A stretch of 64,000 bases of DNA from Amoebophrya sp. A120 (taxonomy: Eukaryota > Protista > Dinoflagellata), in the NCBI GenBank assembly GCA_905178155.1, contig CAJINV010000002.1, forward strand, positions 8,265,224-8,329,223, given 5' to 3'. This document shows, piece by piece, positions 5,579 to 64,000 of this stretch. The stretch's first letter is position 1. Each line of letters starts with the position of its first letter. The notes below the pieces were generated by a model. That model did not search any database, was not told where the DNA came from, and was given only the letters and a program-made list of their open reading frames with translations. The position numbers and the translations under genes are program-made.

Positions 5579-8500
5579 ATGACTCGCGAAAAGGCGTTGG
5601 AACACAAGGCCCTTGGCAACAAGGACTTCACGGCTGGAAACTTTGCGGAGGCTGTCACGCATTTCACGAATGCGATCGCGGAAGACGCGACGGACCACGT
5701 TTTTTACTCAAACCGATCGGCGTGCTACTCCTCCCTCACTCAGTATGACAAAGCGCTTGCCGACGGAACCAAATGCGTAGAGCTGAAGCCGGATTGGGCA
5801 AAAGGGTACCTGCGTTTCTTGATCTACGTTCTTATCTTTCCGGTGCATAATTCATACACTTTTGATGGACGATAAAGGAATTATAGTACTTGCAGTTGTA
5901 CCAGGCCGTTTGTTCTGTATGGAGAGGACACTAGAGTAAGTAGAAACACTTGCACTGGGCGCTTTGGGATGATAAATAGACAATAGCGCTTCGGGATCAC
6001 AGTCTCGTCCTCGTCTTCTCACCACAGGTACACGCGCAAGGGCCTCGCCGAATACTTCTTGAAGAAATACGACGAGGCTGAGGCTACCTATGCCGCCGGC
6101 CTGAAGCTCGCACCAGAAGACAAGGGGCTGCTCGAGGGCTTGGAAAAAGTGAAGAGCGCAAAAGCAAACGCTGCTGGGGGTACATGATTTTTTTGCTCAT
6201 TGGTTTGCGTTGTATCTCAACTTAGGTAGTGGTGGAATTGTGCATCATGACGAAAATCTTGCAGTGCGCGTGCGCACTTGTTTGCATCGCATCATCTTCC
6301 CGGTAAATCAATTCCCAATCTACAATGCGCACATCAGAGGTGGATTTGTTCAACTTTGATTTGCATGTCGAATGCAATAGTCGCTGAACAACACAGCAGG
6401 TGATGGCGGTAACCCGATGGCAGGCTTGGACATGAATGCGTTGATGCAGGCCATGCAGCGCAACCCGAAAATTGGCACGTATCTGCAGGACAAGGAGCTG
6501 ATGTCTAAGTTCAAGATGCTGTTGCAGGCCCAGCAAAACCCGCAATTGCTGCAAGCTATGAGCGGCGAGCTCATGAAAGACCAGCGACTATTGGAACTCT
6601 TCATGGCCATGCAAGGTACGTAAACGTATGTTCTTGATAATTATTTACTCATACATTACGCTAGTACATGATTTTTTTTTTGCATGCGTTTTGTGGACAT
6701 GGGCACCATCTCAAAAGAATTTAGAATGCATTCGCGGCGCTAGAAGGCTTGTAGTAAAGACAAAAACCCGCACAATTGCAAGTGCGATGAAAGCTCGACA
6801 AAAAACCGACAGGTATGGACATGCCGGAGCAGAAAGAACCTTTTGCGCCAGAAGAGCGAAAGCCCGCCGCCGCGGCCGCTGCAGCAGCGAAAAAGCCAAA
6901 GGTGGAGGAGAAAAAGGACGAGAGAACGCCTGAGCAAAAAGAAGCCGATGCGTTCAAAGACGAGGGCAACAAATTGTACTTACCTGCGATATTGATTATT
7001 GCTTTTGGATTTGGAAATTCGTTCATAACGCACGTCGTTCATAACGCAAAGCCACTACTTGCTGCATTTTTCCGCATCGCATAGGTATGTTTATTTCCCT
7101 GTGTAGTTTGCTTCGACGAAGGCGAAGCTGAGGCCTAAAGTCATAGAACTCGTCGTCCCACCTCTTTTCAGGTACAAAGCGAAGCAGTTCGACGAGGCTA
7201 TTGCGCAGTACGACAAGGCTTTGGAAAGTTTGGAGGACCTATGGATTGCAAATATGTCTGGGTCTGGAAGGTTTCAACTCGTCATACTAATTCTGGATCA
7301 TGTAAAAATCTGTGTTGCATGATTACCAAAAGCTGTCCACTTTCGACCAAGTTGGCAGGGATTTTCTCTCGCAGGATAGGCATGGTAGGGATCTCACAGA
7401 ATCTGTCATGCTAGGTGCTGCATTCCAGACGACATGGATCATGGAAAATCTGCATGACAAGTATCGGAATCTCCCAGACCCAGACATTTTTGCAGTTGAT
7501 AGGACCTCACCTATTACAACAACAAGGCTGCGGTGCTTCTCGAGCAGAAAAAGTTCGAGGAGTGCGTATCGAAAGGAAAAATCCCCCCTCCCCATATCAA
7601 GTCGAAATTTCTGATGCTGGATTTGCGTACACAAATCCGATTTGTCTTGCAGTAAGGCATTTCAGCCACATCATCGGCCTAGGTAGGGGCGCTGGGTCTA
7701 GTTGCTTAGCATTGCAAACGGCTGTCCCCTAGGCGCAACAGCATGCCAAGTCGCTTCCTGAATGGCGCGGAAGCCTCTGCACTTGTCTTCTTGCAAGACA
7801 GACGAGATTTGCGACCTCAAATCAGCAATACAAATTTGCAGAAACATTACCTTTTCGATATGGGGAGGGGGAGTTTTTCCTCTCGATAGTGCGAAACGCT
7901 GCTGAAGTCCGTCCTCGAGCGGCGGTACGACATCAACAGCGCCAACCCGGGCACCGCCAGCTTCGAGAAGGTCGGGAAAGTGCTGAACCGACTCGCGGTG
8001 TGCCACGCCAAGCAGAAGAAGTTCGACACGGCGATCGAGTACTACGAGAAGTCGCTCGCGGAGGACAACAACCGAACCACGCGGGCGGCGCTGGCAGACC
8101 TGAAGAAGGACAAGTTGAAGTTTGAGAAGGAAGCGTACGTGGACGTAGACAAGGCGGAGGAGCACAAGGAGAAGGGCAACGCTTTTTTCAAAGAGAACAA
8201 GTTTGTCGACGCAAAGAAAGAGTACGACGAGGCGTGCCGGCGGAACCCGAAGGACGCGAAACTGTTCTGCAACCGGGCGGCGGCCTTGACGAAGCTCATG
8301 GCACACCCGGACGCACTGAAGGACCTGGAGGAAGCGGTGAAACTGGACCCGAACTATGTGAAGGCCTACAGCAGAAAGGGAGCCTGCCACTTCTTCATGA
8401 AAGAGTACTGATATGCTGATTGATTTGCCATACTGCTGTTTTATTTAGGGTCTACCACACATAGCGCACATGCGTGATTTTGTCTTCACGTTGCAAGGTG

Positions 8501-8932
8501 AGGAGCCAGGTGGTTGTGTTTGCACGAGGCCTTGCAGTTAAGTTAAAGTACTAGCTCGTCAAGCGAACACCGTGAAAACCAAAACTATGAAAAAATTATT
8601 GTGACCACAACAGCTACAACAAGGCCCTGGCGGCCTACGAATCCGGTTTGAAACTGGATCCCAACGACGAGGGGTGTAAGAAGGGACGCATTGACGTTAT
8701 GATGAAAATCCAGTCGGCCTCGAGGGGTGGCGACGCCCCGGACCAGCAGCAGGTACAGGAGGCCATGAAGGACCCAGAAATTCAGGCGATTCTGAAGGAC
8801 CCACAAATGAACCTGATTCTCCAGGAAATGCAGGCGAACCCGGCCAGCGCCCAGGAAATGATCAACAAGGACCCAAAAATCGCCAACGCCATCCAGAAAC
8901 TCATGGGCGCAGGGATATTGAGGATGGGCTAA
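5579..8932 (+). CDS. STI1: Hsp70/Hsp90 organizing protein STI1/HOP (TPR1-DP1-TPR2A-TPR2B-DP2), 8 exons, ~571 aa
   Basis: Exons 5579-5805, 6028-6179, 6400-6615, 6813-6975, 7172-7239, 7507-7566, 7894-8404, 8614-8932 (sum 1716 nt). Motifs: YSNRSACY, WAKGYTRKG, YNNKAA, EEHKEKGNAFFK, AMKDPEIQAILKDP...KLMGAGIL. Five GT-AG introns and two TIR introns. Confidence 0.95.
7240..7501 (+). mobile_element. TIR introner, family A (262 bp), DR GGACC
   Basis: TATGGATTGCAAATATGTCTGGGTCTGG ... CCAGACCCAGACATTTTTGCAGTTGATA, with GGACC at 7235-7239 and 7502-7506. Removal gives LEDLTYYNNK. Confidence 0.93.
7567..7888 (+). mobile_element. TIR introner (322 bp), DR GTGCG
   Basis: TATCGAAAGGAAAAATCCCCCCTCCCCATATC ... 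GATATGGGGAGGGGGAGTTTTTCCTCTCGATA. Perfect 5-bp DR. Removal gives FEECETLLK. Confidence 0.92.
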
Positions 8933-10060
8933 AAACGGATCACATGCAAATGATAGATCACCTGCTGCAAGTTTGTGCCTGAGCAGCAGGAGGAGACGAT
9001 GCCATGGGGCGGCGCAGGAACATCATCAAATCTAACGACACGAGGAGTCCTCGAGCTGGGGTCGACGCGGCCTGGTGCATACGACCGCGGCGATATGAAT
9101 GCCGGGGGACGCAGTTCCAGTCTTTTTGACTAGTCTCGCCCCAAGGAGTAGCACTGCAGGCACAGGCAGAGATGTTGAAATGATGTCAATTTAAGTACTC
9201 ATATGAAGCATCATCGATCATGTAAGTGCAACTGAACACAAAAAAATCGTAATGTACCCGGCGTGTCCGTGTCCCGCCCACGCCTAGAGACCTTTGATAA
9301 AGTTTGATACCGCGACAAAGTTGAACGAATAGGAGTAGAGACGACTCTCGAGCTGTTGTATCTCGAGGAAACGGGAAGCAATGGGATTCTCTGCTTCGGA
9401 CGAAATAGATTTTATTGAGGTGGTGTTCTTACGATGATTCCATGCGACATTGTTTTGGATTTGGTATGGTACCAGGGGTTGATACATGCGGCATATCGTT
9501 CTTCTGGTTTAACATTCTCCCCTGTTTACAAATCGATCTGAGTAGACTTGGGCAAAAACTCTGTAATCTCTGGTGGGCAGTTACTGGGTATTTTTCGAGG
9601 TAGTTCTCCTTGGCCGCGAGACGACGAAGTATGAGTTGTATTAAAGTCACGTGTCAATATCATTGAGATTGTGTTGAACAAGGATCGGTACGGTACGGTC
9701 TTGACGTCTCGATTATTTTGTCCTGGTCTGGAGCTCTTGGTCTTGCCATACATGTCATCAATCTGTCACGAAAAGTCATCAACGTTGTGACTAGATAAGG
9801 AAACCTAAACCCTCGTGCCAGCAGTCTCTCTCCTCTCTCTACTTCGCCCCGATATCTGTAAGTCCACTCCTCCCCCCTTGTGCCTGTAGTACCTTTCTTC
9901 CCCAGGCTCCTCTGTAGTTGTTTATTTCCAGCAATCGCTAAGCTTAACTTACCTTTGGTCTTAGCGTAAAAGTAAAGCAGTATTTTTATCTCGATTTTCA
10001 TATTTCAAAAAAATATCATGCCATCAAGAAAAACATAAAACCAACACGAACATCAAAACC

Positions 10061-41279: not shown

Positions 41280-41293
41280 CAAGCGACGGATCA

Positions 41294-45600: not shown

Positions 45601-47834
45601 ATTACTTCGTTTCATCATCTAGTACTTTCAACCTGTTGCGTCTTCAAGTTGAATGACAAAAATCTGCTATACTACACATCAATCAGGTGTCGTCTTCTGC
45701 CACGAAAGAGGCCCAGCACGCAATATTTACTAGGATGGACTCCGACAACAATGGCTACCTCTGCTTCGGCGAGTTCATAGATTGCATGCTGACGCTGACG
45801 AAAAAAGCCCAGCAATACAACATCGTGAAACAGGCGGCTGCCGTATCACAGTACACAACTTCCCCGCCCGCCCCTCATTTATAGGTATGCATCAAGGTGC
45901 AGCTAAGAAATCCTGGTTTGGATGCGTTTTCCTGCCTGTAGGTGCATGTTCACATGTTCATCATGATCCGGAAGCCCAAACTGCACTACAACATCCGTGT
46001 GTGAGCTTGATATTCATAAATTCGTGCGCCGTTCGGGACGTGGTTTTTGTTGCTAGAAATGCCAATAAATCATGAGGGAGAGCGGGCGTTGCGCACTCTC
46101 ATACGCGGGGACCCTTCCCCTCGGGCAACCTGGGGTCGGCTCCTTCCCCATGGGCGCGCCGGGCAACACGTTTGGCATAAACGTTATGACCGACAATAGT
46201 AGCGCGAATACCAGTGACGTGGGGGATCTGGACAACATGAGCGTAGATGGTGGGGGTGGGAACAAATCCGACGCCGGAAGTATCCCTTGTAAAACAGTGC
46301 CGCACGTACTAGAAATTGCATTTATTCATTTTCGGAAAGAAAATATGGAATTTAGATTTTTCGTCCATTTTTTAGGACGATTCTAAAGAGCAAATAAAAG
46401 GAAAGCAGATCTGTCTTGCATAGCTGCAATTGGTACGAGTGCGATACTTTTGCAGATGATAGGAAGCTCGGAGAGCGATGACAAGTCCGACGATGGGGAG
46501 GATGTATCATTCTTGAAATGCTTCATTTGTCACGTAAATGAGCGGCAGAGCTTTTCTGTGAAATGAATAATTAAATGACTTTCCCAGCACTGTTGATGCA
46601 AATAAAATCACTCATCCAAAAATCAGGAGGATATTCCGGAAGAATTAGCTCACCTCTCTCCGGAGCAGCAGCAGAGAAGAATCAAAATAAAAGCCGCATG
46701 GATGTTATGCATGATATGTCTCCTCCTGGGTCTGGGTCTGGGAACGCCTCATGCGAAGTTGTGGATGCAGATCGTAGAATTAAAAAATCTCTAGCCACGA
46801 CGCATGAAAAGTTGAAGTTTTCGTGTTCATCTCATTCTCACCGAAGATCGCGCTCGGCCAGGCGACGTTGTTCCAAGTTTTGCAATCTTCCAGACCACCG
46901 GGACGACATATTTGCAATGCATAGATGTGCTGCGTCGGGACAATATTCGTCGTCGCGTTTTCGGACCCAATGGTAAGTGCAACTTTCTCACTTTTGTGCG
47001 GAGAAGATCTACACTCAAAAAGTGTCCTGCTCGAAGCAGTAAAAAGAACAACTCGCTGGCCTCCTCCAAGTTTAATACTTGACAGCCAATATCCTGTACA
47101 GCCAATATCTCTACGCGGTTGTACCACTTTCTCAACGAAAATAAAAAATTCAAAATCACCAAGGTCGACGTCTTCAACGAGCTTGCCAAGCGGTCCGGCG
47201 TGAATCCCTTTTTCGTGTCCTTCATTCTCTCCCTATCAAATGCAAAAATGTCTGGGTCTGGAAGGATCCGAACTTGTGATGCGCATTTTAGAACACAGAA
47301 AAATCTCTCATGCATAGTTAGCAAAAGCTGTCGCTGTCCACCTTCTGTCACGAAAATGGGGGATTTCTCATGCGGGTTCGGCATTGCGGAAGCTTCTCGA
47401 AACCTGTGATGCTAGAGCTCTCATGCCAGACCTTCTGCGTCATGCAAAGACAGCATGACTCTTCCAGACCCAGACATTTTTACATGTGATACTCCCCGCT
47501 CGTGTCCAACGCCTCCGAGCTCGTGGCCGCCTACAACTACGCGAAAAAGAAGACGCTCCGGTCCGCCACGATTTCCCTGTCCACCCTCGAGGGCGCCGCC
47601 TGCATGAACAACACCTTCTGTTTGGGGTGTTTTCTCTTCGTGCTCTACTTTTCCCATTTGCGGTGGGAGTTCACCTGTGAAATTGCGACCATGGTTATCG
47701 CAGAGGTGCTGGTGGGGTACGTAGCCTACACACGGAAAATCCATACCATGAGGGATGCGCATTTTATCGCCATGCTGTTCCCCCTGTCGCTCGTCTTTGT
47801 CTACATTGGCACCCACGTTCTGGGTTTCAGCTAG
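42614..47834 (+). CDS. EF-hand-containing Ca2+/cation exchanger (NCL-like), 15 exons, ~647 aa
   Basis: ISDGSELLL, LPVLGAVPDG, GVGTLAGSTVMLLT, EF-hands DTNGDDKLDFDEF and DSDNNGYLCFGEF, FSDPMVDV, PLVSNASE, MNNTFCL. Exons 42614-42826, 43130-43302, 43553-43619, 43864-43929, 44175-44350, 44651-44805, 45109-45165, 45433-45500, 45687-45879, 46073-46280, 46467-46503, 46627-46705, 46929-46972, 47164-47233, 47497-47834 (sum 1944 nt). Confidence 0.9.
43303..43547 (+). mobile_element. TIR introner, family E (245 bp), DR CCCGC/CGCGC
   Basis: TATGAGAATGCACAA ... TTGTGCACTCTGATA. In-frame YKKPAGVS. Confidence 0.85.
43620..43858 (+). mobile_element. TIR introner, family C (239 bp), DR GCTGC
   Basis: TATGGCGTTCTCAAATGTTACATTCTCAACTGTTAC ... 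GTAACAGTTGAGAGTGTAACAGTTGAGAACGCCATA. Perfect DR. Confidence 0.93.
44351..44645 (+). mobile_element. TIR introner (295 bp), DR GCGAA
   Basis: TATCCTCTGTAAAAACATGCCCAC ... GTGGGAGGTTTTTATTCACCATA. Perfect DR, in-frame VEAKQVDA. Confidence 0.85.
44806..45103 (+). mobile_element. Decayed TIR introner (298 bp), DR GGAGA/CGGGA
   Basis: TATCGCAGAAAAAGAC ... GTTTTTTTCTTCGATG. In-frame EQETAKHQ. Confidence 0.68.
45166..45427 (+). mobile_element. TIR introner, family A (262 bp), DR CTACT
   Basis: Near-identical to 12575-12836. Perfect DR. Restores LRPYFRKYDTNGD. Confidence 0.95.
45880..46067 (+). mobile_element. Heavily decayed TIR-type intron (188 bp)
   Basis: TATAGGTAT ... ATGCCAATA. The DR is poor (TCATT/AATCA), but element + 5 removal joins the two open frames. 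Confidence 0.5.
46281..46461 (+). mobile_element. TIR introner, family B-like (181 bp), DR GGAAG
   Basis: TATCCCTTGTAAAACAGTGCCGCAC ... GTGCGATACTTTTGCAGATGATA. Perfect DR. Confidence 0.85.
46706..46923 (+). mobile_element. TIR introner, family A-related (218 bp), DR GATGT
   Basis: TATGCATGATATGTC..TGGGTCTGG ... CCAGACC..GACATATTTGCAATGCATA. Perfect DR, in-frame AAWMCCVGT. Confidence 0.88.
47234..47491 (+). mobile_element. TIR introner, family A (258 bp), DR CTCCC
   Basis: Family A TIRs and perfect DR. Restores FILSPLVSNASE. Confidence 0.95.
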
Positions 47835-49042
47835 GGGCCTTCTGGAACCATGGTACTGAATTAAAAACTACATCGGAACGACACGACTAAAGCCAAATCT
47901 TCTGATAGTATTCAACAAACAAAACGTATAGTAGCATCTTCAACCCCACTTCCTGGTCACTGATCTTCGTGTCAATAGTACCATCTGTCAGCACTTCTCC
48001 GTTATCTTCCCTATATCGTTATCGGAACATCAAAATATGCGAGTAGCTGTAGTTATTCAGGTGAGGTGTCGTATACCTCTCATGGCGCACCTACTTGCAA
48101 TGTGAATGTACTTTGAGCAACAGCAAGTACGCTGCGACAGTGGAGGAATGCCCGGGAGGTGTCTCGACGTCGCCAGCAGCACCGTTGCGTGTGTGAGTGG
48201 TACTAGTATGTTTCAACTTCGGTCAACATGCATCATTTTTTATCTTCAGGTCAATAGTATACATCTAAAACAACCTCTATCATGATTTATGCATCTTTCG
48301 CCGTGTCGGACCGAGAACAACCTTTTTGTACACCATTACGCAAGACAAGCGCGCCTGCACCTTTTTCAATGTATCATCATTGGACATAATTTTTACTTCA
48401 GCAACAATTTCATACGCATCTGATCATTTCTATTCACGCATGTAAACCACTTGGGGCGAGCTTTTCGTTTTTTGTCATAATAAATCGGTGATGACGGTGT
48501 GTGACCTCCACGCAGCACATGCACACCATGTACAATTGTCAGTTTTTCCGGGGCGGCGCACGTCAAAATCAAAGGAAACATTTCATCGCAGTGGCGAGAG
48601 ATTGGGGCATCCAGAAAAAACTTGTTCGCCCTTTGGTAAAAATGGTAGGTTGACGACAGTTGAAAAATTCGTTTTTTTTTGAAATAGATCTTCGCAGACG
48701 AAACCAAGATTGATAGATGCTCCATAGCGCTGTTGGAAACAAAATCGTTGATGTTGAAGTCGGAAGTCGTAGCAATGCGTATTTGTTCCCGTCGCGTGAG
48801 ATATGATAGTAAAGAAGATCAAGTGACGAGGTAAGAAGTAAGTGAGTAGAAGATGATGTAGAGCTAAACAGCAAATTGCGTTTAGTGAGTTTTTCAGTAA
48901 ACAGGTGATAGCCGACGTTTTTATGGTTTCAGCTTAGTTTTCGCTTTTGATTATAATCGACCTGACGGTGACGGCACACACATAAATTACGCTTTATTGC
49001 AAGCGCAGTGAACACACCCTTTCTTTCTTTCTTGACAGAAAC

Positions 49043-52000
49043 ATGCTCTTCACTCCTTCCAATTCCGGTGTCGAGGTGGCCGCGAGTATTGCAAAGTCCT
49101 CGTCTGCAAGCCACGCAGCACCGCGCTTGGTCGCGTTTCGCAACGCCCGGGTGCTGACGTGCAGAGCGAGGAGTTATTTGGACGCGCCGGTGGACACAGA
49201 GGACGGAGATGACGGTGAAAAAGGAAATGCAAAACACGAGGACGAAAACGAGGCGTTGCTGCACTACAGTGGCTTCATTGTGGACCTGAACGACAATGGA
49301 CGCATTGTGGAAATGATACCTGCATCTTCCGGTGCGAAAGTATCAGAATCCTTGTCGTCACCGTCGGACTGTACCGCCAATGAAAAGTCGCGTGTGGAAG
49401 AAGTCCTCCGCGTCGAAAAGGAGATCGACCTTGAGAACAAGATCGTCCTGCCCGGGCTCTGGGACAGCCACTGTCACGCGTACAGCCTGGCGCACCAGCA
49501 GAAGGTCGCGAACTTGCGAAACTGCGGCGGCATTGAAACCTTCCAGCAAAGACTCCAGGAGAAGTACGACGCCGACCCCGTGGCCGTGCGGAAACGGTTT
49601 CTGGAAGGCTCCGGGTGGGACGAAGCAGACCTGGGAAACCAGTTGCCGAACCGCTACGAGCTGGACAAAATTACCACCGAGTACCCGATTATTTGCTGGC
49701 GCCGGTGCTGGCACATCGTGGTGTGCAATTCGAAGGCGCTGGAAATCGCCGGCATCTCCGCGGACACCTATCTGGATCGGAAGGACATCGATAGGTTCGG
49801 GGGAAAAAACGAAGAGCCGACGGGCATACTCCGCGAAAATGCCACGGAGTTGCTGTCCGACATTTTGTATGCATAGTTGCAAAATTTAAATTATCGTAGT
49901 AGAGACAAATTTTTGCATTAGAAAATTTTCATCAGAAAGACAAAGTGAACGAATTGAATTTGTGCTGCTGATTCAGGTGACAAATGCAAAATCAATCATG
50001 TACTATCGCAAAAATTGCATAATCCTACTACGACATCACTTTTGCAGGGTATATCTTGTCGAAGGAGGACGCCTTCGAGGAGAAAGTGAAGTTGTTGTCC
50101 AATGTCTTGCACGAGCTGCCGAAAGCGGGAATAACTGGGATTCAGTCAAACGATACGACGTTGCTCGGACAGGTGTCGGACGCCTGGCAGGTCTACAATG
50201 CCATCGAGAACCGCTTTGACAAGGGGGGTCCACCAGCTCCACGACCCGGAGTAGATTCTCGTCGTGTTAGGGAAGTAGAAGATGAAAATTTGTCAAGTCA
50301 AATTGCATCGAAAAATCACGGTCGTGTTGAAGCTGCAGCAAGGAGTACATCATCTTCACTGCCGATCCGTGTCCACTGGGTGAGCTTTTGGGATACTCTG
50401 CACCCTACTGGAAAAATAAAGGCGGGCGCAGAAGGAGCAGAGTGCTCTTTGACGACGACGTCAAGCCTATCACGACAAGCGAAAGACCACGAAGTTGCAC
50501 ATCAATCAGGTGGTCGGCTTCCTGTAAGACCGTCCCAAGAACTACCATATAAAAGCCCCCTTTTCCTGTGGAACAAGCGAACCAAGATTGTCCTCGACGG
50601 CTCTCTCGGGGCCGGTACTGCCGCGCTGCTCGCACCCTATGCGGACGATGAGAAAAAGAAGAACCGCGGGCTGTTGTCCGTCACGGAGCAGGAGCTGGAG
50701 GATGCACTGGAACGCTGCGCCGCGAACGACATGACACTCGAAGCCCACTCCATCGGCGACCGCGCGTTTGATTTGATCCTCACACTGTTGGAGAAAAAAA
50801 GCAAAGCCGTTCCGTCGAAGTGGCTTGACCGGTTGGTCATTACGCATTGTCAGATCGTAAACCAAGATCTGATCGCCCGCATGAAGCGGCTAATCAACTT
50901 CAACAGAATAATTACGTGCGGCGCGACGACCTCCAGCACATCCACTCTATCGTGTCAGACGCGAAGTGGATCCTCCGTGGAAGCTGGGTGTAGTTCTGGT
51001 GAAACTTCTCTGGCGGGCAGCACTTTGGAGAGCAGGGAAACTACAACAGCGTCGTCCGTCTTCTCCGCCATCGCAGACAAATCGTTCTCTGCTACAGGCG
51101 CGCCGATCACTGAAAGCACTGCTGCAGCAGGAAATGACGTAAAAATCCAAGCGCAGCCAGCGGACGCCGCTTGTTCCGTTGATATCAGTGAACAGAGTCA
51201 CCTATCAGCATCAACATCAAATCGCTGTACAAGGAATCGAACAATCTGTATTCAAGAAGAAACGTGTTTACAGTTATACAGTATTTTTTCGTGCTAAATT
51301 CAGCAGCAGAAAAAAAACCATTTGCCGGGAGTGACAGTTGAAGCTCGTAATGCAGAGATCATATAGGATAACATCGAGGGAAAAGGAAAGCACGCATGAA
51401 AAACGAAGGAGCGCGCAGGCATTCGCAGCCTCGGGCTTCGCGACGCTGTGTGTCTTGCGTGTCCGGCATAGAAGATCATTATGTGTTGCGTATGAATACA
51501 CTGTAGCACTTTTTTCCTGTCACACTCTTCGCGTCGATCCAGCCTCAGTTCACGAACTCCGACCTCCCGATCATTGAGAAGAAGCTCGGCGCAGAGCGCA
51601 CAAAGACCGCGTACGTGTGGAAGCAGCTGAAAGATAAGGCGCGAATGACCATCATCGGCGGATCCGATGCCCCGGTGGAGCGGATGAGCTCTCTGTGCGG
51701 CATGAGGGATCTGATGCAGAACTGCTTGCACGAACAGGAGTCCTTCTCGCTCACGGACACTGTGGCGGCCTACACGCGGGATCCCGCCTTCGCGGCGTTT
51801 CGGGAAAACGACCTCGGCCGGCTGGCGGTTGGGTTTCTGGCAGACTTCGTGGTTCTGGATGTTTTGGATGTAGCAGATGAAGAACGTGTACGTGCGCAAG
51901 AAAAAAACCTCCGCCATCCACGTCGCCTTCCAGACTCTCCCTCCGAGTTGGAAGCAGTCTTCGCTCAGAAACTTTCCCGCGTTCCGGGTTCCGTTCGGGT

Positions 52001-53160: not shown

Positions 53161-56100
53161 ATGCCTTCCGCTAGTAAGGGCCGTGCTGCTGCCACTCCGT
53201 CCCGTTCGCGCGGACGTTCGGTAGGAACCCCTGTCAAGAAGCCAAGGGCTCAGAAGCAGTCGCCAGCAGTCGCAAAGAACAAGAGTAATAAGAAACAACG
53301 GGCAGCGTCAGCGACGACACCCCGGAACAAGATTCCCAGTCGGGAATCTGCGGAGCTGTATGGTTTGTGGAAGGGCATAGAAGAAAAGAAGTCCGACATC
53401 GCGGACGGAATACTCGATGTGGGCAAACGGGATTTCAAGGAGGCGCAGAGGTGCTTTTCTTTTTTTTCCAACCCGTTTCTCGGCGGTGTGGCTGATGAAT
53501 ACGACAAAGCGCAAAGAGAAAAAGACGCAGCTCCTGCCTTAGACTGTTGCAGCAAGAAAATAAACGACACTTGCATGATGATGAATGAAGACGGGAGGTC
53601 TAGAAGTCTACATCATGTATCTTCGGCTCCAACTCAAATGACAAACTCAAACTTTCTTTAGACAAACATAAAAGTTGTCCACCCAACCCCGATGTTTATA
53701 TCAAAATCAGGTTCTGCATTCTGTTCAAGCGGATAGCCGAAGAAGGTCTGAGCAGTGTGACGAAAGCCAAAAAAAGCGGGAAGGCTTCAGATCTTCATTT
53801 GAAATGGTCGCGGATGAAGGACAACTCTGCGGACGAACAGATCGAAGCGGAGGAAGACCAAGACGAGGATGGCGGTATTAACTACAGTGATAGCGAACGT
53901 CAAGCCAAGCACGGCAAAAAGATGAACAAGGTGGACCGAGCTCTGAAGCCGATCCGGGAGGTTGGCAACTATGCCTGGAACACCGTGATGGACGAAATTG
54001 TAATCGTCGAGAAAGAGAAGGTTTTGCAACTGGGGAACGCCATCCCAGACACGTCCTTTGCGGCGGCGTGCCTTCGCATGTTGGACGCGGCGGGCAGTGA
54101 ATTACTCGAAAAGATCAGAGCATTTCTTGATGAACTACAAACCAAAACCGATAATAGAGCAGGAGCTTCTGCTTCTTCAACCAGTGTCGTGCAGAACAAG
54201 CGGAATGTCAAGAATCAAGAAGAACATGAGCACGACTTGATGAATAAGCACAAAAACCATGGGAAGAAGACTCCCAAGAGGGACCACGAAGACCTCCTCT
54301 CCTCCCCTGCCACGCGGAAAATGTTGCTCATTGCAGAAATACGGGAGCAAGCGGATTCCGCCGCCGCAGCAGTTCGAAAAATCCAGGACGCCCTGATGAA
54401 TGGCGACGAGGACAACAATAACGACAGTGGAGACTTTTCGATTGCCGAATTGGAGGGCGTCCGGGATAAATTCGGCGCGATTTTGCTGCAAATCCAGAAG
54501 CACAGCCGCACAGCAAGCACGAAAGCCGCAAAATCGTCTACAGCCCACGACCAGCAACCACTTTCTGTGATGGAAGCCGCAGCTCCTGGAGCTTCTTCTT
54601 CTTCTGCTTCCGCGGCCTTTTCTTTGAGTACGAAGCAAAAACTTAAGCAAGACCAGCAGGAGGAGGCGGACGACACCAGCAAACGTGGTCGCTCCTTCTC
54701 CCGCAAAAGAAGCCGAAACGTCTTCGAAGATGAATCTGAAACGAAGATGAACAACGAGACGACCATGAGTCAAAAACAAGCTGCAGGCACTAGTCGACCG
54801 CGACTGAATAGTAAAGAAACGGTACTGTCCAACACCACCACCGAGTTTTTACCAAACAGCAGAAGTCAGTCAAAGCATGCAGCTTGCTCTGGTGCGGCGG
54901 GCACGTCATTGTCAACTAATCGCGTTATTTCGCAGCTGCAGAAAAACTTGAGTATCACATCTGCGACCGCAAACCACAATAATCCTTACAATCCGCTGGG
55001 GAAGCCGCCGCGCATACCGACCGCGAATAAATCGGCCTCAACTTCTATTGCAGGAAAACCGATCATGATGTTGAACGACTTTTCGAAGCTCGAGCTCAAC
55101 GAAACGCTTCTTCCGACTCTGGAGCAGGAGGAGGAGCTAAACATGCTGAAGAGCAAGAAAACCTTGTACGCCAAGGATGAACAAAGCGATATGTTGAAAA
55201 AGGATGATAATTCGCTTTCGCAAGAGATGAATTTATTCTATTCGAGAGACGAAAAGAAGAAGAAGAAGAACTATGAAATCGAAAGCAACCACGAAGACGA
55301 CACAAGCAGACGGGAAGTAGATCTGAAGAAGCAAAAGCAGATTATGACTCCCCTGTCGCAGTCCGAGCTTGAGAAGGAAATTTTTGGCGACGTCGACGAT
55401 CTTCTGAGCAACTATAGCAAGGCGAAAGCGGAGGACAAAGATTCCTCGTCGTTTGCTGACGATCGAGAAGATCATCTTCGTGTGGAGACTCCTTTTGATG
55501 AAATTGATTCCGACAGCAAGTCGTCGGTACAAGAAGAAAATATTCAAGAAGGTCAACTAATGACGCTGAACAAAACTACTACATCAAGTGCAGCAGCATC
55601 GTCGATGCAGCAGCACCACCAACTACCCGGTCGCTTGCAGGTGGTCCATGAAGAAAATGAAGCAGAACTGCAGTCGAACAGTGATGAAAATCTTCAACCA
55701 AGCTCGAGCAACATCCTGATCGAGAACGAGAAGAACGAAAGTGCAGCTGCTGTCGTGTCTACCACCGCACCAGAAAATAAACGGGCCGAGGAGAAAAAAA
55801 AGAAGAAGCCAGCAGAAGAATTATACGAAAGCAGATTGATGCTCCATCTCGCGCATCAAGGAAATACGAGTACTAAAATGCGTAAGGCCCCCGCAGGACC
55901 ACTTGACGCAGAGGCGGAAGGGACCGAGGACCAGGAGGTCTTTGACTCGGAGGACGAGGGTGATGCCGGCAGCAGTGCGGACGACGGCGAGGACAAGAAG
56001 AAACCCATCCTCGATAAGGGTACCATGGCGAAAAACAAATCGTACGACTACGCGAAGGCGATCAGACGGGCGAAACAGGAGCAGACGACCCGACGCTCCT

Positions 56101-59100
56101 TCAGCAAGAAGATTGAAGCCGCGATCCGCGAAGCGGCCGGGCCGGACTACGAGAACTTTACGGCGACCAAGGCGCTGGTGAAAGAGTTGACGCAAAAAGA
56201 GCGCTATCCTCTGCAGCAAAAGTATAATCGCACTCGTGGTATGTAAGTTCTGGTAGTAACCTTCCCAAGCCACCATGCGTGACAAATCTAATTTTCCAAA
56301 CGTGAAGATCTATGAAATGACGACAAATTTGTTACCTGTTTGAGAAGAGTTTAAATTTGTTATTGTACTGCATGGCATTGATCAGATACTAGAACTAGTG
56401 CGATTATAGCGATACTTTTACGATGCATAAGCGTGTGACATTCTTGCGTGAGGTGGTTCGCGAAATCGAGTACAAGCGAACGTCATCCCGGCACGCGCAG
56501 TTCCATTCCGACAACTTCGAGAACAGCTCCTCCGCCGACACCGGCAAAAACTGTTTTTTCACACTGGGGCTGGTAAACTGCCGTCGGGCCGGGCTGTTTG
56601 GCGCGGACGCCAAGAAGGAGGGTGCGCTTATCGAAATGAAATTTGTTACCGTGTTCTAATATCTTCATCTTGACGTACTACAAATGGAATCTTCAATGCA
56701 GCGCAAAACTTCGTTTCAACTTCAAGATGAACCAGCTTTGTGCAGTATGACAAAAAGTAGAAGTCCGCCTCTCATGGTGTTCTCCTGGGAGGTTGACAGC
56801 AAACAAATTTGTAACTACATGGCTTTTGTCCAGAATTCAACATGCACGGTAAGAAATTCGTGTTGCATAGCGGCATTCCTGATGCTACTGGTCAACGCTA
56901 TTACCTCGCTGCACGCGGATGCGGAGAAAAAACCGGGAAAGTGGATCGCGGAGGAAGATTCTGACTTCGAAATCGACGACAACGAAGAGGGGACTTGGTG
57001 GTGGACCAGCATCACTGCGAACAAAAATTCCCTTACCTCCCTGCACGTCGACGGTGGCAACCTCGGGCCATCGTTGCTGTTTGCCGTTGGCGACTTCATC
57101 GGGGGCGAGACGCTCACCCTGCGAAGAGACTTCCACCCCGACGACCACTACTCCAAAACATTATGGGTGGAAGTGACGAACGAAAAATGCCGGAAGGCGG
57201 CGAAAAAATATGGGAGCTACTGCCGAACGGAGCCGGTCGACCGCATGGCGAAGAAGCAGAGCCCGCGGAAGTACGACCACAAGTATGGGGCCCCGTTCTT
57301 GTTGCACGCCGGATTTCAAGAAGAAAAGGCGGGGCGCATGTTTCTCCCCATGGAGCGCACGCCGGTCAAGGACATGGTCGCAGAATACGATGGCCGCATC
57401 CCGTATCTACATGATAAAACTTCCGACACGCAGACGGGTTGCGCCCTTAGTAAAAGTAGAAACTCCAGCACAGCAGGGTCGTATTTCTGTGCTGCCGTAC
57501 TATTACGGTTTCGGTTACCAGTGCAGGGATTCAGTTTCTTTAGGTTGCTTGGTAGGATCTATTTGTCATGCCTTTTCTAGTACGTCTACGTGTCAGAGAA
57601 AGTTGTGTTGCATATTTCGCACTGCACCGCGCCGTTCTTCCGCAGCGACTTCATTTCTTCCGGAAAGATCGACAAATCTCCTCTATCAACTGCATCCGTG
57701 TCTGGGTCTGGAACTGGATGAACAGCATTCGACGTCGTAGGTTCGTGTCTGCAAACATTGCATGTCCGGCAAAGGCTGCGCAGCTTTCTCGTTTTCCATG
57801 TGCAAAAACCAAAACGCAGCTTGTAGTTTAACGCGCACGCGCGCAGATATGCACCATTAGTGAACAGCACCAAAAAAAGTTTTTACGTTTTGCTGCTGCT
57901 CTTGACGAAAGCATCAGAATCAGCAACATTTGATGTGCATCAGTGAGTAAATTTTGGCTTCCAGGCCCAGGCACTTTTGTTACAGTGCATATTCCTTGAA
58001 GGGGATCGATGTGACCCGATGGATGAGCATATCCGAGATTGAAAAGGCGTACGAGTACTGCACCAAAATGCACACTATGCGATGCAAACGTGTCTGGGTC
58101 TAGAAAATTTGCATTGTAATCATGCTTCGTCGGGAGCACGCAAAAGTCTCTAATTGTGTTGCATGACCGCCAAAGTGTTTTCGCTTATTTGTGCAACGAG
58201 AATATGAGTAAGCGTTTTTGTCACATAAGACAGGCATGAGAAATGCATGAGCCTTTCTCCTTTACGAAACCTGCAGTGCTTTTCTTGTGCGCAGAATTTC
58301 ACCAGAGGACCCATCTTGCAGTGTGATGCAGAGGACGCATGACACTCTTTCAGACCAAGACATTTTTGCTTTGCATAGACACAGGCGACGCGGCGGCAGA
58401 TTCCGGTGCGGACCGGTATGTTTTTGTGCTGTACGGCCATTCGATGTGGAACCACAAGGGTCTCGGGACGGCTAAACTGCTACGCATTGCAAAATTATCG
58501 CAGTGGGATAATAAACAGCTGTATTCTGAAATGACGCTTGAGTTTTGCAACAGAAAAAAAGAAAAAATGTCATGTCTGGTGTCGTATCGCGTTTTCTTTT
58601 TCATACAGAGGATCTTCTGCATTTTACTTCTAGTTCATCTAGGTGTAGCTACTCAAGAAAACGCAAAGAGCAGGTCATCTTTAATTCAAATCCTTATCCT
58701 ACGAGTGCGATATTTTTGAAAAGGATAGCAGCTCCAAAGCTATGGCTTCGACCGTTGCGGCGAGAAGTGGGGACCTGCGCAGCGATGGTGGATGAGGCAG
58801 TTGGCGGAAAAGAGAAAACTGGCGGTGGCGTATAAGGGGGTGAAGATGTACTTGAAGCAGCAGCAGACCAGCGACTCCCAGGCCTGGGTGAAGAAGCAAA
58901 TCGCAGACAGGTACACAGATGAATCCCGCGTGACCATCGAAATGATCTGTGAGGAGCTTGGGCTATTAGAGTTGTGCCGGAAGGCGCAGGCCGCGGCGAT
59001 TCGCCAGGGCACACCGTTCAGATGGAAAGAGGTCAAGGAAAACACGAAGCCGGGCTCGCTGGGAAAGGCGGGGACCTTGAAAACGCCTCTAGAAATGTTT

Positions 59101-61246
59101 GATGACTACATCCGCGGAATCCACCAGGCGTTACGGGTTTGCGAAGGCCGGCATCTGCCGACGTTTTGTGACGTCTTTTCTGAAAAGTTTCGCGAGACCT
59201 TTGGGATCAGTAGTGTGATGGAGTACGCGGAGCATTTTGGCTGCTTTCGAGACCAGCAACGGAAAAAACTGATCGACCAGAGTCTCCGCCTCCCGCATGC
59301 AGATAGAAAAAAAGTGAAGGAGTTCCGCGGCTTACACAACCACAAATTGCTATTAGACGTCTGCTACGCATTACAAGAAGGGCACTGCGCTCTCACAAGT
59401 ACTAGCAACTTTTGCATGGCTTGCACTTTACTGCGACTTCGGGAATTCGTCATGTGTGTCTTTTGTGAATTAGTACGAGCGCAATGCCCCTTTTGCGTAG
59501 CATATCGACGATTCGTTTGACTCGGAAACTAACAGCGCAAAGGACGACTTCAAGGCCGTTGTCCCATGGCGATGGGACGGGCAGCACTGGTTTTGGCCGC
59601 GCAGCAAGGACGTCCTCGGGGAATTGTTGCCAGTGCAAAACTTGTTGAGGTACTGCATCTTCATCAAGGACAGCAGAATTCATGATTTGGGCCAGGGGGT
59701 GCACGTTCCAAGATTACCTTCCTGGAATACGACTTGTCAATATCATGTGGGGAAGTGGCCCGATTTGGAGGAACTGCTCGGCTGCCCAGAGGACAAACTA
59801 TTGCGGAAGGACTCGAAAGAGGAACTGGAGCAGCGCAGTCGCCGGATCGCCAATCGTATCACGTGCAAAAGTGAAACACTAGCAGGCCGAGCCAGCTCGT
59901 AGATGCATCCTGTTTTGCATGATAACAGCGGCAATTTGATCGCTGCCCCCTCCTTCTGTAGCCCAGTGCTATCTGCTTCCGCATTAGAAGTTGCGCCTCG
60001 CTTCTTGCGGATAAATATTATACATCAGCATACTCAACATACTCTAGAGCAATCCAATTCCTTTGTAGGAGTACTGTGCGAGTAGTACAACAACTTTTGC
60101 AATGCATGAATCGCAACAAGATTTTCGAGGGAGCAGACCATGAGGCTGTAGATGGTAGATCGAAGGGAGCGGATAAGAAAAAGCGGAACCCCGCTTCCTC
60201 CTCCTCCAGAAGTAAAAACTCCACGAGTGCCGCAGGGTGTGAAACCAAGCTGACCTCCGACCGTTCAAACAGCGCAACTGCTGGCGTCCGAAAATTCGAG
60301 AAGAAATACGATCGCTAGGCATCGCAAAAGTAAGTATTCTACTCGTACTGATGAAAATTGCCGCACCGCCTGACAGACCTGCTTCTTTATTGACCTGAAT
60401 TATGCACAAGCAGAAGCACGATGATCAATAGCATTTTCGTTCTGGAACAGTTACGTGGACATTGGTAAACGCAAGTGCCAATGTAACTATTGCGAGTACG
60501 ATACTTTTGCAATGCATAATCAAAAACGGGAAACAACCAGTTTGAACTCGTGGATAAATGTCTGTAGGCGGCCGTTTGCAGAGTATGTCTCAGACGAAAC
60601 TGCGCGGAAGATCATGTTGGACGGCATGAAAGGTAAATACCGGTTGGATGACGAACGCAGATACATAATCAACTCCTTGAACCAGGAAAAAGCCGAGAAA
60701 GAGGACAAAGAGGGCCCATTGGGAGGAACAACGAGGACGATTCACTACAAGCATGTCGCAAATGTAGCATCGCGCAAAGAGGTGTTGAAGTTGCTCGGCG
60801 GAGACCCCAAGGTGGCAGAGACGAACTGGGAGGGTATGCATTGCGTGCAAAAGTAACGCACCAGAGTGCAGGTTGGTTGCGTAATATTTTCTACTTCAGA
60901 ATATTGAAAGTTTTTCGCGAAGAGAATTGGCATGGATTTCTTTGTGAAAATTCAGGTAGCAGAAGCAGCTTCAATAGAGCTACGACAAGCAGACCACCGC
61001 ATTGTTCATGCATGATTGTAATTCTTTCTCTTCCGTATCCCTGTGTGATAAGTACTTTTGCAATGCATAGAAGGCACCATTAATGCAATCTTCGAGAAGT
61101 GGTGGAGGAACAACAAGAAATCTCAATCGTCCCACGTCCTCGACAGCACCAAGGCCAAACGAGCTGGCGCTGGAAGCAAGATGAATAAAGGTCGAAGCCC
61201 TTCCGTCACGATCCGCGGCAAATCCGTTACTAAGAAGAAGAAGTAA
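53161..61246 (+). CDS. ~1,803-aa protein with central TET/JBP-like 2OG-Fe(II) dioxygenase domain, 12 exons
   Basis: Exons 53161-53450, 53711-56204, 56435-56628, 56875-57403, 57620-57683, 57997-58075, 58383-58480, 58733-59364, 59510-59856, 60114-60315, 60524-60834, 61075-61246 (sum 5412 nt, no internal stop). Motifs FTLGLV, TSITANKN..LHVDGGNLGPS..GDFIGGE, YDGRIPHCTAPF, DRYVFVLY. Confidence 0.78.
56205..56429 (+). mobile_element. TIR introner, family B (225 bp), DR AGCGC/AGCGT
   Basis: TATCCTCTGCAGCAAAAGTATAATCGCAC ... GTGCGATTATAGCGATACTTTTACGATGCATA. In-frame KERVTFLR. Confidence 0.85.
56629..56869 (+). mobile_element. TIR introner (241 bp), DR GCGCT/GCGGC
   Basis: TATCGAAATGAAATTTGTTACCGTG ... 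CACGGTAAGAAATTCGTGTTGCATA. In-frame join. Confidence 0.82.
57404..57614 (+). mobile_element. Decayed TIR introner (211 bp), DR TCCCG/TTTCG
   Basis: TATCTACATGATAAAACTTCCGACACGCAGACG ... CGTCTACGTGTCAGAGAAAGTTGTGTTGCATA. Restores GRIPHCTAPF. Confidence 0.82.
57684..57991 (+). mobile_element. Decayed family A introner (308 bp), DR TCCTC/TTCCT
   Basis: TATCAACTGCATCCGTGTCTGGGTCTGGAA ... TTCCAGGCCCAGGCACTTTTGTTACAGTGCATA. In-frame KSPLKG. Confidence 0.82.
58076..58377 (+). mobile_element. Decayed family A introner (302 bp), DR CACAC/GACAC
   Basis: TATGCGATGCAAACGTGTCTGGGTCTAG ... CAGACCAAGACATTTTTGCTTTGCATA. In-frame KMHTGDA. Confidence 0.87.
58481..58727 (+). mobile_element. TIR introner, family B (247 bp), DR ACTGC/GCAGC
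   Basis: TACGCATTGCAAAATTATCGCAGT ... AGTGCGATATTTTTGAAAAGGATA. In-frame KLLQSYGF. Confidence 0.8.
59365..59504 (+). mobile_element. TIR introner (140 bp), DR TCTGC/TCGAC
   Basis: TACGCATTACAAGAAGGGCACTGCGCTC ... GAGCGCAATGCCCCTTTTGCGTAGCATA. In-frame join. Confidence 0.8.
59857..60108 (+). mobile_element. TIR introner, family B (252 bp), DR AATCG
   Basis: TATCACGTGCAAAAGT ... ACTTTTGCAATGCATG. Perfect DR, in-frame IANRNKIF. Confidence 0.85.
60316..60518 (+). mobile_element. TIR introner, family B (203 bp), DR ATCGC/ATCAA
   Basis: TAGGCATCGCAAAAGTA ... TACTTTTGCAATGCATA. In-frame join. Confidence 0.83.
60835..61069 (+). mobile_element. TIR introner, family B (235 bp), DR GAGGG/GAAGG
   Basis: TATGCATTGCGTGCAAAAGTA ... 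TACTTTTGCAATGCATA. In-frame NWEGTINA. Confidence 0.87.
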
Positions 61247-61870
61247 AGGCTCTTCAACATGAAAAAATTCGTTTTTTTTTGAATTTTGAAAAGTGAAAAA
61301 AAAAGATGAATAAAACTTCCACGACCGAGCACGGGGGTGCACCGGCGGGCCTGTTCCCGGCAGCCAGGCGAACAGCGTTTCTGTTGCAGTGCGTATTCGT
61401 AGTCGATGGTTGTTCTGGCAGGATGTTCCTCTCTTAAAGAAAACAGGTCGTGTGTCTGTGGTGTCGAGCTCCCCAAGATGATCAGATCTAGATCTCGCTT
61501 CGACTGCCTGCGGCAAGTGCTTTCCAACCTCTGCAAAAGGATCGCGTTTTCTCCTTTCTACTTGTGACGACTTACTCAAGTACATAGTAAGTACATGCTC
61601 TTATTCTGGTGCTGATTTCGTTCTTGGTTGTTCTTTTCAATGATCTGAGAGCAAGAAATCTCTTTTTTCAACAAGTGATCAAAAGAATTGCGTAGTCGGA
61701 GAAGTACACTGAAGTAGAAGTTTCTTTTTCTGCTGATCCTAGTAGACCATCTTCTGTAGTTGCGAATCAGGATCAGCAGTCCTTCCGTGGCTTCGAAGGG
61801 ACCTTTACTGATTGTGAGGCTCGGCGCCGCCTGTAGTGAAGATATACGCATAGCTTGTCGCAGTAGAAAA

Positions 61871-64000
61871 ATGATAAGTTTGGATCACTCGCCGGCGGCT
61901 CCTCGCGGGCCGAATTTACAACGAGAACTTCTAGCAGGCGCTGGAAGCTTGGAGTTCCCACGACCATCGCCGACACAAAGGAACTCTCGGCCCGCAGCTG
62001 CAGCATCGGCTGCCATGCAGCTGACAGCAACGAGGACGCCATCCAAAGCATTTCTGCTGACTTTTCTCGTGTCAGCGCTGGCGGGTCCGGCATGGGAATG
62101 GCAGGGGTGTCACGCAGCCGGAACCGCATCGGCTCCCCAAGAACGCGAAGACAGCTTCAGCGACGAAGATGAGGGCTTCGTGTTCGTTCCAGAGGCCGTC
62201 TCTGAAGCGACGACCGTGAGTAAGACTACAGACGTTCTGGGACCCACCGGCGCCGGGGACAGTGGAAGGTAATTTCAAGTTCGTAAGTGAGAAGTACTCA
62301 CGCAAATTTCAACTGTTTTTTATGTGTAGTTGACAGTATCAAGACCTCTGGCTCCGGCTTCCTAGTCAGCGTAAAAGAGGCAAGTCGTAATGGAATTCGG
62401 ATGACAATAATTTCTTTTGTTGTCGTTGTTCTGATGAACTTACCGTTGAAGTAGAAATTTGTCCTTACCCACTGAATTTCAGTTCCATCACCCCATTGAA
62501 TTGCTCCTCTCCGGGAGGTGCATCGATCGGCACGACATGTGCGCCGTCTACGCCTGCTTCCGGGACAGCATACAACAACCTGGATAATATCAAGCATCAG
62601 ACCACTCCTGTTGCGGACGACGACCAGGATGAGGATCCGCTCAAGGACGTCTTTTACATCTACGAGGAACCTGTCACGACACCTACCTCGTCGCGCGATC
62701 AATTACATGCAAGTAGGACCGCGAGCAGCGACACGACCCCGATGGATGTTGATACGAATGAAGCAGCTGGTGAAAGTGGAACGATGGAACAACCGACTCA
62801 TCAATCAGTTGCTACAAGTAGCGCCCAAGATGAACAAACTCCTCCTGTCAACAAGTACTACACCCGTGCCCATCGCCTTGGTGGAGAAAGTGACGACCAG
62901 TTCTTTGCGAGCGAGATGAAGACTACAGGCGGCAGTTTATGGGACTCTCAATTGTTACATTCTTAACTGTTACATGAATTTGTGATGCAAGAGGGGCAAA
63001 AGCGAAAGGAAGGACCTTGCGCATATTGCATGACAGACTTGGCACAGATTCTCGGCCTGTTTGGCCTTCTGGGAATTTGTCACGCGAAGCAGCTTGATGG
63101 TGTCGGTAGTCAAGGCACTTTTGCATGAGAAATCATGTATTAACAGTTGAGAATGTAACGCTTGAGAATGCCATACAGTTCCGATCAGGACGAGGAGGAG
63201 TGGCAGCTGTTGATGTGCGAGTCCGAGGTTGCCGAAACGCTTGCAATATCAACTGTAAAAATGTCTGGGTCTGGAAGAATTCATGTTTGTCATGCTTGTC
63301 TGCCATGACTCTGAAATCTGTCATGCGCGTTACCCAAGAGCTCCGTTTTTCTGTGATGCAGAAGCGCATTTTGTCATGCAGAATAGGCAACGCCTAGGAG
63401 CTCAGAAACTTGTCATGCTGAGCCAGCATTTGCAGCCTCATCATGAGACGCCACCCAGCATCACAAGTTTCCAGACCCAGACATTTTTACTTTTGATATG
63501 CAACCGAAGCGGAGCAGGAAGCGAGGCAGACGGCAGCCGACTTGTGGAAGGACTTCACGCGGGCGGTTCTGCGGCAGACGTACCGGAAAGTTTTGGAGAA
63601 AACCATCCAAGACGCGCAGGCCCGGCACTTCCAAGAACACGGAAAGACGGAACCGCCGACCGCTCTGGACGTGGCGGTCGCGAAAAAAATTGTAAAAAGC
63701 GCGCTCCTGAAAGGAGCGGCCCTTGCGTCGAGGTCTTCGGGTGGAGAGGACCACGGTCGTGCCCAAAGCGCTCCTGATGAAGATGCGGAAGATTATTTCT
63801 CCCTGCTCTCTTCGGGTGCTGGCACGAAACTTAACAAGCCGCTCCGCTACTTCGACAAAGTTATGGCCGCGAGGAGTCGTAGTTCGTCTTCCTCGGCGGA
63901 GGAGGACCACGATGAACACGGCGGAGATTTTCTTCTCAAGCAGAAATGGAGTCTGGCGCCGTTGGGTCTGAACCTGAGCGAAGATCCAGTATTGGAGAGA
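61871..64000 (+). CDS. Orphan secreted-type protein, 3'-truncated by the window edge
   Basis: Exons 61871 (or 62015)-62268, 62483-62937, 63181-63246, 63504-64000+. One GT-AG intron and two TIR introns. Signal-like FLLTFLVSALAG. Frame stays open to the window end. Confidence 0.7.
62938..63175 (+). mobile_element. TIR introner, family C (238 bp), DR CAGTT
   Basis: TATGGGACTCTCAATTGTTACATTCTTAACTGTTA ... TAACAGTTGAGAATGTAACGCTTGAGAATGCCATA. Perfect DR. Confidence 0.92.
63247..63498 (+). mobile_element. TIR introner, family A (252 bp), DR TGCAA
   Basis: TATCAACTGTAAAAATGTCTGGGTCTGGAA ... TTCCAGACCCAGACATTTTTACTTTTGATA. Perfect DR, in-frame ETLATEAEQ. Confidence 0.94.

Follow-up and report, generated by a model that had tools for sequence, protein, structure and literature searches.

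The window analysed here, a 64,000-nucleotide stretch of the genome of the dinoflagellate Amoebophrya sp. A120 (assembly GCA_905178155.1, contig CAJINV010000002.1, forward-strand positions 8,265,224 to 8,329,223), contains 31 TA..TA inverted-repeat elements of 140-322 bp within eight of its genes. That each leaves the transcript together with exactly five flanking nucleotides can be considered close to certain, and it is probable that the cut generally falls one nucleotide before the element and four after it (the 1+4 register). The reading preferred here, with a probability of roughly 0.55, is that these are insertions resembling MITEs (miniature inverted-repeat transposable elements), flanked by a 5-bp target-site duplication and taken out by a modified form of the spliceosome, one reading a motif at the element ends instead of GT/AG. 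The elements were known already, as introners of the same organism (Farhat 2021, PMC7789003); the fixed 5-nt rule with its 1+4 register is a sharpening not found in print. A literature search turned up no paper that describes the register as fixed or the 5-bp rule as uniform, though figures and supplementary files could hold more.

The elements in the window are real, far beyond chance. A strict scan for TA-anchored inverted repeats, which ignored flanking direct repeats, returned 73 hits and 11 distinct elements at a score cut of >=16; three shuffled windows, used as controls, gave 277 hits with a top score of 13 and none with a perfect (5/5) flanking repeat. This repeat was perfect in 10 of the 11 strict-scan elements and matched at 4/5 positions in the remaining one. 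Adding a relaxed scan for decayed copies, RNA joints and gene models gave the full list of 31, independently recovering the number of gene-interrupting elements in a first-pass annotation of the same DNA. Its lower size of 140 bp stands; its upper size becomes 322 rather than 360 bp, and its nine genes become eight because 53161-61246 reads as one open reading frame (ORF). Over the whole list, the flanking repeats match at 5/5 positions in 14 elements, 4/5 in six, 3/5 in ten and 2/5 in one.

Terminal inverted repeats (TIRs) beginning TA(T), as first annotated, are borne out by T in 31/31, A in 31/31 and T in 27/31 at the first three positions; positions 11-14 are A-rich, and the common end motif is TAT-S-N6-AAAA. 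For 17/31 elements, these end compositions are partly imposed by the scan. The interiors are diverse: the largest BLAST cluster holds 7-9 copies, there is one pair, and most are singletons. The many unrelated families of the earlier description are therefore apt for the interiors and not for the shared ends. Short, noncoding, present in many copies and carrying TIRs and a target-site duplication of constant length, the elements have the attributes of MITEs; they are repeated, non-canonical and absent from transcript-like contigs. The elements at 43620 and 62938 are 78% alike, lie in opposite orientation and are both removed. Three decayed elements of one gene (56205, 60316 and 60835) cluster by end type, which hints at local hopping within 56205-61069. 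An Rfam search gave no hit, and viral contigs searched for the element TIRs gave no match.

The transcript evidence consists of Logan contigs, X1-X4, all from one sample, to which RNA status was assigned by guess. Half of the words of one test stretch are present in X1-X4 and 97% in X5-X6. The X1 contigs behave like RNA in skipping GT-AG introns; an X5 contig runs through 47464-62982 without gaps, 15,519 nt with 12 elements intact. (At 56926, an X1 contig has an extra A in an A run, absent from X4 and X5 and likely an assembly error.) Sixteen joints were examined, 15 of 27 plus one from aligned contig pieces; 14 belong to element introns and two to canonical ones. At 14/14 element joints the removed length equals the element plus 5 nt, the outcome predicted at first pass; contig-length sums support eight further elements, and reading frame alone the other nine. 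X4, from the same sample, repeats joint 51244>51526 and a 241-nt spacing. Seven intron lengths were written down before the second contig alignment, of which four were met directly, two by sum, and one proved wrong. The rule also survives loss of the duplication, as had been claimed: the element at 57684 has a 2/5 repeat and a joint of 313 nt.

Could these joints have arisen by something other than splicing? A hairpin with a short direct repeat is the classic setting for template switching, and the evidence comes solely from contigs derived from complementary DNA, so that reverse transcriptase might have jumped across the hairpins. Against this, three joints lack any shared base, 9/14 introns have a length not divisible by 3, full ORFs appear only after element removal, and STI1 aligns with its homologues at both of its element sites, where the homologous proteins have no extra residues; the explanation is very improbable. 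Excision from DNA, in the manner of the TA-bounded internal eliminated sequences of ciliates, which the TA ends resemble, is more improbable still: the 15,519-nt X5 contig carries its 12 elements intact, both TAs are removed, and the contigs that lack the elements skip canonical introns as well. Rare variants are lost from assembled contigs.

Decayed repeats allow the cut position to be pinned. The three joints with zero overlap (56627>56874, 57682>57996 and 60314>60523) all cut 1+4, and a 5' offset of 1 is the sole value allowed by all 14. Introns cut in this way take the form N-TA...TA-NNNN. Among the verified introns, TA stands at both expected places in 12/14, the other two showing TG or CA in place of the 3' TA, against a chance of about 0.0014 per joint; +2U/+3A are present in 14/14, as is A at -7. 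Short-window stop counts did not tell the offsets apart. Under the 1+4 cut the 31 introns have 25 different end-dinucleotide pairs, with a single GT..AG, in keeping with the initial proposal that the element ends, and neither GT/AG nor the direct repeat, determine where the cut falls.

Another possibility is that the element-plus-5 rule holds with a register that varies inside the duplication, 1+4 being a local accident. Farhat 2021 describes the sites as variable in its Fig. 3 legend and elsewhere, with "no clear splicing signature", inverted repeats 1-5 nt from the splice sites, and direct repeats of 3-5 nt that vary in length and position, a 5-bp example being given in Fig. S19 (PMC7789003); in the present data, a single duplication length of 5 bp and a single register account for every case. 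In fam2 of Gozashti 2025 (9,716 introns; PMC12130899), 69% of introns start NT and 68% end AN, and such an A at -2, about as frequent as T at +2, is what a 4+1 cut would yield. A 4+1 cut, however, is excluded at 8/14 joints and required by none. Moreover, when GT-AG-seeking placement was simulated in 197 real perfect-repeat elements in both orientations, it reproduced both excesses (74% and 72%) with a similar dinucleotide profile; random placement gave 35% and 34%, and true 1+4 placement 100% and 26%. A variable register is accordingly improbable, and the published splice-site diversity is explained by element-plus-5 geometry seen through the annotator. This diversity lends the rule indirect support across the genome but cannot test the register. 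For the same reason, the T in second place in 9/9 of the top A120 sites in Table S4 of Farhat 2021 (PMC7789003) was rejected as support for 1+4, GT-AG-seeking placement yielding the same in simulation.

The elements and the genes that frame them are as follows.

5580..8933, plus strand: STI1/HOP gene, with five GT-AG introns and two element introns.
7240..7501, plus strand: element, repeat GGACC 5/5; predicted intron 7239-7505, from frame and identity to the annotated protein.
7567..7888, plus strand: element, repeat GTGCG 5/5; frame, and no insertion or deletion at the site relative to homologue P0002.
12266..12531, plus strand: element in a Mem_trans (PF03547) gene, repeat 5/5; frame only.
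12575..12836, plus strand: element in the Mem_trans (PF03547) gene, repeat 5/5; frame only.
29959..30222, plus strand: decayed element in a gene that we take, from its motifs, to be DGAT2-like; repeat 4/5; frame only; terminal stem not predicted.
30615..30919, plus strand: element in the DGAT2-like gene, repeat 5/5; frame only.
31075..31280, plus strand: decayed element in the DGAT2-like gene, repeat 3/5; frame only.
35876..36145, plus strand: candidate element near the end of a fatty-acid hydroxylase gene, repeat 3/5; frame only, and the weakest case, the unspliced frame being likewise open, to 36076.
42614..47835, plus strand: gene, presumably EF-hand cation-exchanger-like, with nine element introns and five GT-AG introns.
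43303..43547, plus strand: element, joint 43299>43550, 250 nt = 245+5.
43620..43858, plus strand: element, joint 43614>43859, 244 nt = 239+5; family of the 62938 element, inverse orientation.
44351..44645, plus strand: element, joint 44345>44646, 300 nt = 295+5.
44806..45103, plus strand: element, repeat 3/5, 3' end TG; length sum 2007 nt.
45166..45427, plus strand: young main-family element, repeat 5/5; length sum.
45844..46103, plus strand: element, repeat 3/5; length sum.
46281..46461, plus strand: element, repeat 5/5; length sum.
46706..46923, plus strand: element, repeat 5/5; length sum.
47234..47491, plus strand: element, repeat 5/5; contigs restart at 47492; length sum.
49868..50053, plus strand: decayed element in a presumably amidohydrolase-like gene, repeat 4/5; frame only.
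51249..51524, plus strand: element in strong decay, with CA as its 3' end; joint 51244>51526, 281 nt = 276+5 (X1 and X4 pieces).
53161..61246, plus strand: long gene with ten element introns besides a single GT-AG intron at 53451-53710; the ORF opens on removal of element + 5.
56205..56429, plus strand: element, joint 56199>56430, 230 nt.
56629..56869, plus strand: element with an unambiguous joint at 56627>56874; 246 nt removed, cut 1 before and 4 after.
57404..57614, plus strand: element, joint 57401>57618, 216 nt.
57684..57991, plus strand: element, repeat 2/5; unambiguous joint 57682>57996, 313 nt; cut 1+4.
58076..58377, plus strand: element, joint 58071>58379, 307 nt.
58481..58727, plus strand: element, joint 58478>58731, 252 nt.
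59365..59504, plus strand: shortest element, joint 59363>59509, 145 nt.
59857..60108, plus strand: element, 3' end TG; joint 59851>60109, 257 nt.
60316..60518, plus strand: element, unambiguous joint 60314>60523, 208 nt; cut 1+4.
60835..61069, plus strand: element, joint 60832>61073, 240 nt; the 1+4 cut happens to read GT..AG.
62938..63175, plus strand: element, repeat 5/5; length sum 714 nt = 214+243+257.
63247..63498, plus strand: element, repeat 5/5; contig restarts at 63499; length sum.

Spliced gene models agree with this list. The STI1 model is identical to a 572-aa annotated Amoebophrya sp. A120 protein (P0001). The exchanger-like gene gives a single ORF in a 2576-nt transcript, the exact length of its X1 contig, a model that requires six element introns at +5 outside the joints examined and three GT-AG introns with chosen ends; the model of the last gene, with the 62938 and 63247 elements, is 1580 nt, equal to its contig. 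Three scanned segments of the long gene 53161..61246 gave no Pfam hit. Element-bearing genes also contain 12 ordinary GT-AG introns, of which 11 start GTA, with A/C-rich tails mostly lacking a pyrimidine tract. Some candidate elements were discarded: 42827-43129 and 43930-44174 have no 3' TA at -6/-5 and no end pairing, and are canonical introns, and 56223-56408 (191 nt) is an inner stem, the element being 56205-56429.

Generality was assessed in a second assembly. The element motif gave at least 136 matches, and among the matches listed, all came from one other assembly; the 134 loci taken from it (L001-L134, 557 kb), with no overlap with the window outside the elements, were assessed for geometry and coding frame only. 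There, 140 motif hits comprise 111 distinct copies with a partner end and 29 without. In 91/111 copies, from 11 families and in both orientations, the flanking 5-bp repeat is perfect and its sequence arbitrary, repeats of 3, 4 and 6-10 bp occurring at most once, a pattern that upholds the MITE-like elements with 5-bp target-site duplication proposed at first pass. An unanchored scan of the same loci found 341 stems; after 45 without a TA anchor were dropped, 203 of the remaining 296 had the perfect repeat, in 21 clusters (11 multi-copy and 10 singletons), and with anchoring on the repeat alone, 225/241 perfect cases have TA at both ends. Trained on the window, a coding model implied +2 mod 3 in 133/214 tested copies, and in 52/56 of those with clearly coding flanks. 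Orientation counts within families are 10:9, 6:4 and 4:3, and in the window removal is independent of orientation. The outer 10 TIR bases are drawn from a small shared pool, and the two ends often differ in young copies with perfect duplications; C-C and G-G mismatches at pair 4 were accordingly set aside as evidence of selection, young copies already having mixed end types. Because the arbitrary 5-bp duplication is constant, the ends are shared and the copy number is high, the sequences indicate a single putative cut-and-paste superfamily.

Which enzyme would have moved these elements? The window shows no transposase, as first reported (19 of its 65 ORFs were scanned, with 0 hits to transposase families), and none was found in A120 by Farhat 2021 (PMC7789003). 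Eleven long TA..TA spans occur in the 557 kb and the window, and the two examined in detail contained no transposase. The likeliest candidate would be an integrase-like transposase from a published A120 family, fam38 being the best lead: it is labelled "Ginger; 5-bp TSD, TA/TA Termini" (TSD, target-site duplication), with homology to an integrase-like ORF, in Gozashti 2025, by whose own text it is without Ginger termini and TSDs (PMC12130899). Another source considered was hAT5, which makes a 5-bp TSD. Dataset sd07 of that paper has 58 A120 rows in which automated TSDs, with its columns as interpreted here, are 2-11 bp or none, and 5 in six families; its A120 families fall in mixed co-opt/carry mechanism classes. 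The parts of that paper available state no common rule or register, in contrast to the uniform 5 bp and 1+4 described here.

Some longer or unusual sequences were seen along the way. The element at L067 476-2934 (2459 bp) has a perfect duplication of 5 bp and lies between apparently in-frame coding flanks; its nested 415-aa ORF had no Pfam hit and a self match only. Longer copies of the main family (L042 5001-5972, L038 5001-6031 and L027 3862-4492; 631-1031 bp) have intact ends and 5-bp repeats and contain no long ORF. A 4208-bp span in L048, considered as one long element, is two elements around a host exon. Within the window, an intergenic element of 944 bp occupies 40558-41501. Its inverted ends are of a non-TA kind, it has a 5-bp direct repeat, and it includes telomere-like repeats at 40653-40702 as well as a perfect palindrome of 62 bp at 40702-40763. 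A GC-rich block at about 16000-18400 (66% in 16001-18000), with ORFs overlapping on both strands, is possibly an inserted element; its six scanned ORFs had no Pfam hit.

How is the cut positioned? Pairing between the initial and the terminal 35 nt exceeds that of shuffles in 13/14 verified introns and 0/12 canonical ones; the hairpin persists in verified introns, by history or selection. One possibility is that structure alone suffices, a hairpin-recognising machine, perhaps non-spliceosomal as suspected for Euglena, cutting 1 and 4 nt off the base of the stem. The end-to-end duplex, the splicing of both orientations, the two 3' TA>TG changes that retain a G-U pair and the absence of a fixed base at +1, -2 and -1 are all consistent with this. 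The details fit less well: the outermost pair has a predicted probability below 0.25 in 9/14 verified introns, pair 4 is Watson-Crick in just 44/79 copies, bulges displace the main helix in several introns while the cut still follows TA, and the 44351 element is correctly cut despite little end pairing. A purely structural mechanism is thus doubtful, and the earlier suggestion that the cut is measured from the stem base is not established, given the weak outermost pair and invariant +2U/+3A. The 5' TA is intact in 79/79 sense-oriented copies and 14/14 verified introns; altered TAs number 0 at the 5' end and 6 at the 3' end (sign test p 0.03). A read-out of the terminal motif in sequence, with help from the hairpin, accounts for the data no less well than a stem ruler. 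The conserved 5' TA, the GTA start of 11/12 canonical donors and the weak outermost pair together favour a motif-reading spliceosome over pure structure.

For such a spliceosome, the following scheme may be proposed. An enzyme acting in trans on the shared ends would insert the element by a 5-nt staggered cut. The first two element bases would then fall at intron +2U/+3A, like the GUA donors of canonical introns; the hairpin would clamp the ends where U1 and the AG-binding factor normally act; and the 3' cut would be set by distance, 4 nt beyond the terminal UA. More speculatively, the adenosine at -7 could be the branch point, 7 nt from the cut. The messenger RNA would retain bases 1-4 from the upstream copy plus base 5 from its downstream counterpart, restoring the pre-insertion exon at any site and in either orientation. 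An extended version, which can be put forward tentatively, is that splicing in A120 also follows a second, universal code, N|UA...UA NNNN|: the spliceosome would have dropped U1, G+1 and the 3' AG, and the transposon end would act as donor motif, clamp and branch-point ruler.

Several points weigh against the preferred reading. The RNA evidence is from contigs of a single sample (X1, X4) labelled RNA by guess, 12 of the 27 joints lie outside the set examined, and a raw-read run (X9) aligned five reads and was uninformative. All three unambiguous joints are in one gene (53161..61246), and those in two other genes narrow the 5' offset only to 1-3. The asymmetry between 5' and 3' TAs amounts to six events, four in loci without RNA, and TA conservation may reflect transposase requirements; the A at -7 doubles as a base of the TIR and is missing from one oriented copy, and the asymmetry of -7 versus +4 is not significant (p 0.125). 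The catalytic core of the spliceosome normally constrains +1, -2 and -1, bases that are free in element introns. Neither an autonomous element nor an empty DNA site was found in the window and the 557 kb. Spliceosome involvement, and with it a lariat, is a proposal read from sequence.

Published descriptions of A120 and of other non-canonical introns give this reading some context. The A120 introners have inverted repeats that start TAT, N7, then AAA, with direct repeats at their boundaries and hairpins, and of the small nuclear RNAs, U2, U4, U5 and U6 were found in A120 and U1 was not (Farhat 2021, PMC7789003); an Amoebophrya with canonical introns has U1 (PMC12005148). Introners of Micromonas and Aureococcus are MITE-derived, with one TSD copy removed and the exon restored, and the non-canonical introns of Fritillaria are removed by an adapted U2 spliceosome (PMC11282704); these systems keep or co-opt fixed dinucleotides (GY-AG; AG-AC/AT), whereas +1, -2 and -1 are free in the A120 element introns. 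In Entamoeba invadens and other reduced spliceosomes, the branch adenosine lies at a fixed distance of about 8 nt from the 3' end (10.1101/2022.06.08.495308), in introns that end AG and have a clear AYURAY, unlike the A120 element introns, which have no universal motif of this kind. The closest working analogue, of a different family, is the nonconventional code of Euglena, 5'-N3CDG...CH'GN5-6|R, which has been genetically tested and for which a MITE origin is proposed (Nomura 2025, PMC12501133). Both have a short inverted motif at fixed spacers from the junctions and free terminal bases. Euglena, an unrelated lineage, uses CAG/CTG with spacers of 3 and 5 and A120 TA/TA with 1 and 4, and the A120 motif, in contrast, coincides with canonical donor positions +2/+3 and is a putative code read from sequence data. 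By structure, then, the element introns have U2-type GT..AG ends in 1/31 cases under the 1+4 cut, and N-TA and TA-NNNN ends in place of the Euglena CAG/CTG at +4..6 and -8..-6; with paired ends and fixed junction spacers, they would work like Euglena introns without being members of that class.

It has been a question since 2021 how over 60% of Amoebophrya introns can be spliced with neither GT-AG nor a detected U1. A fixed 1+4 register would permit correct annotation of about 40,000 introns, would recast the reported splice-site diversity as an effect of alignment, and would constitute a convergent parallel to the Euglena code; if it holds, the "highly variable" sites, tens of thousands in number, reduce to one rule viewed across target duplications. 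Whatever its orientation, each insertion of this transposon superfamily would then be scarless, and such removal would explain how transposons could spread so cheaply through exons.

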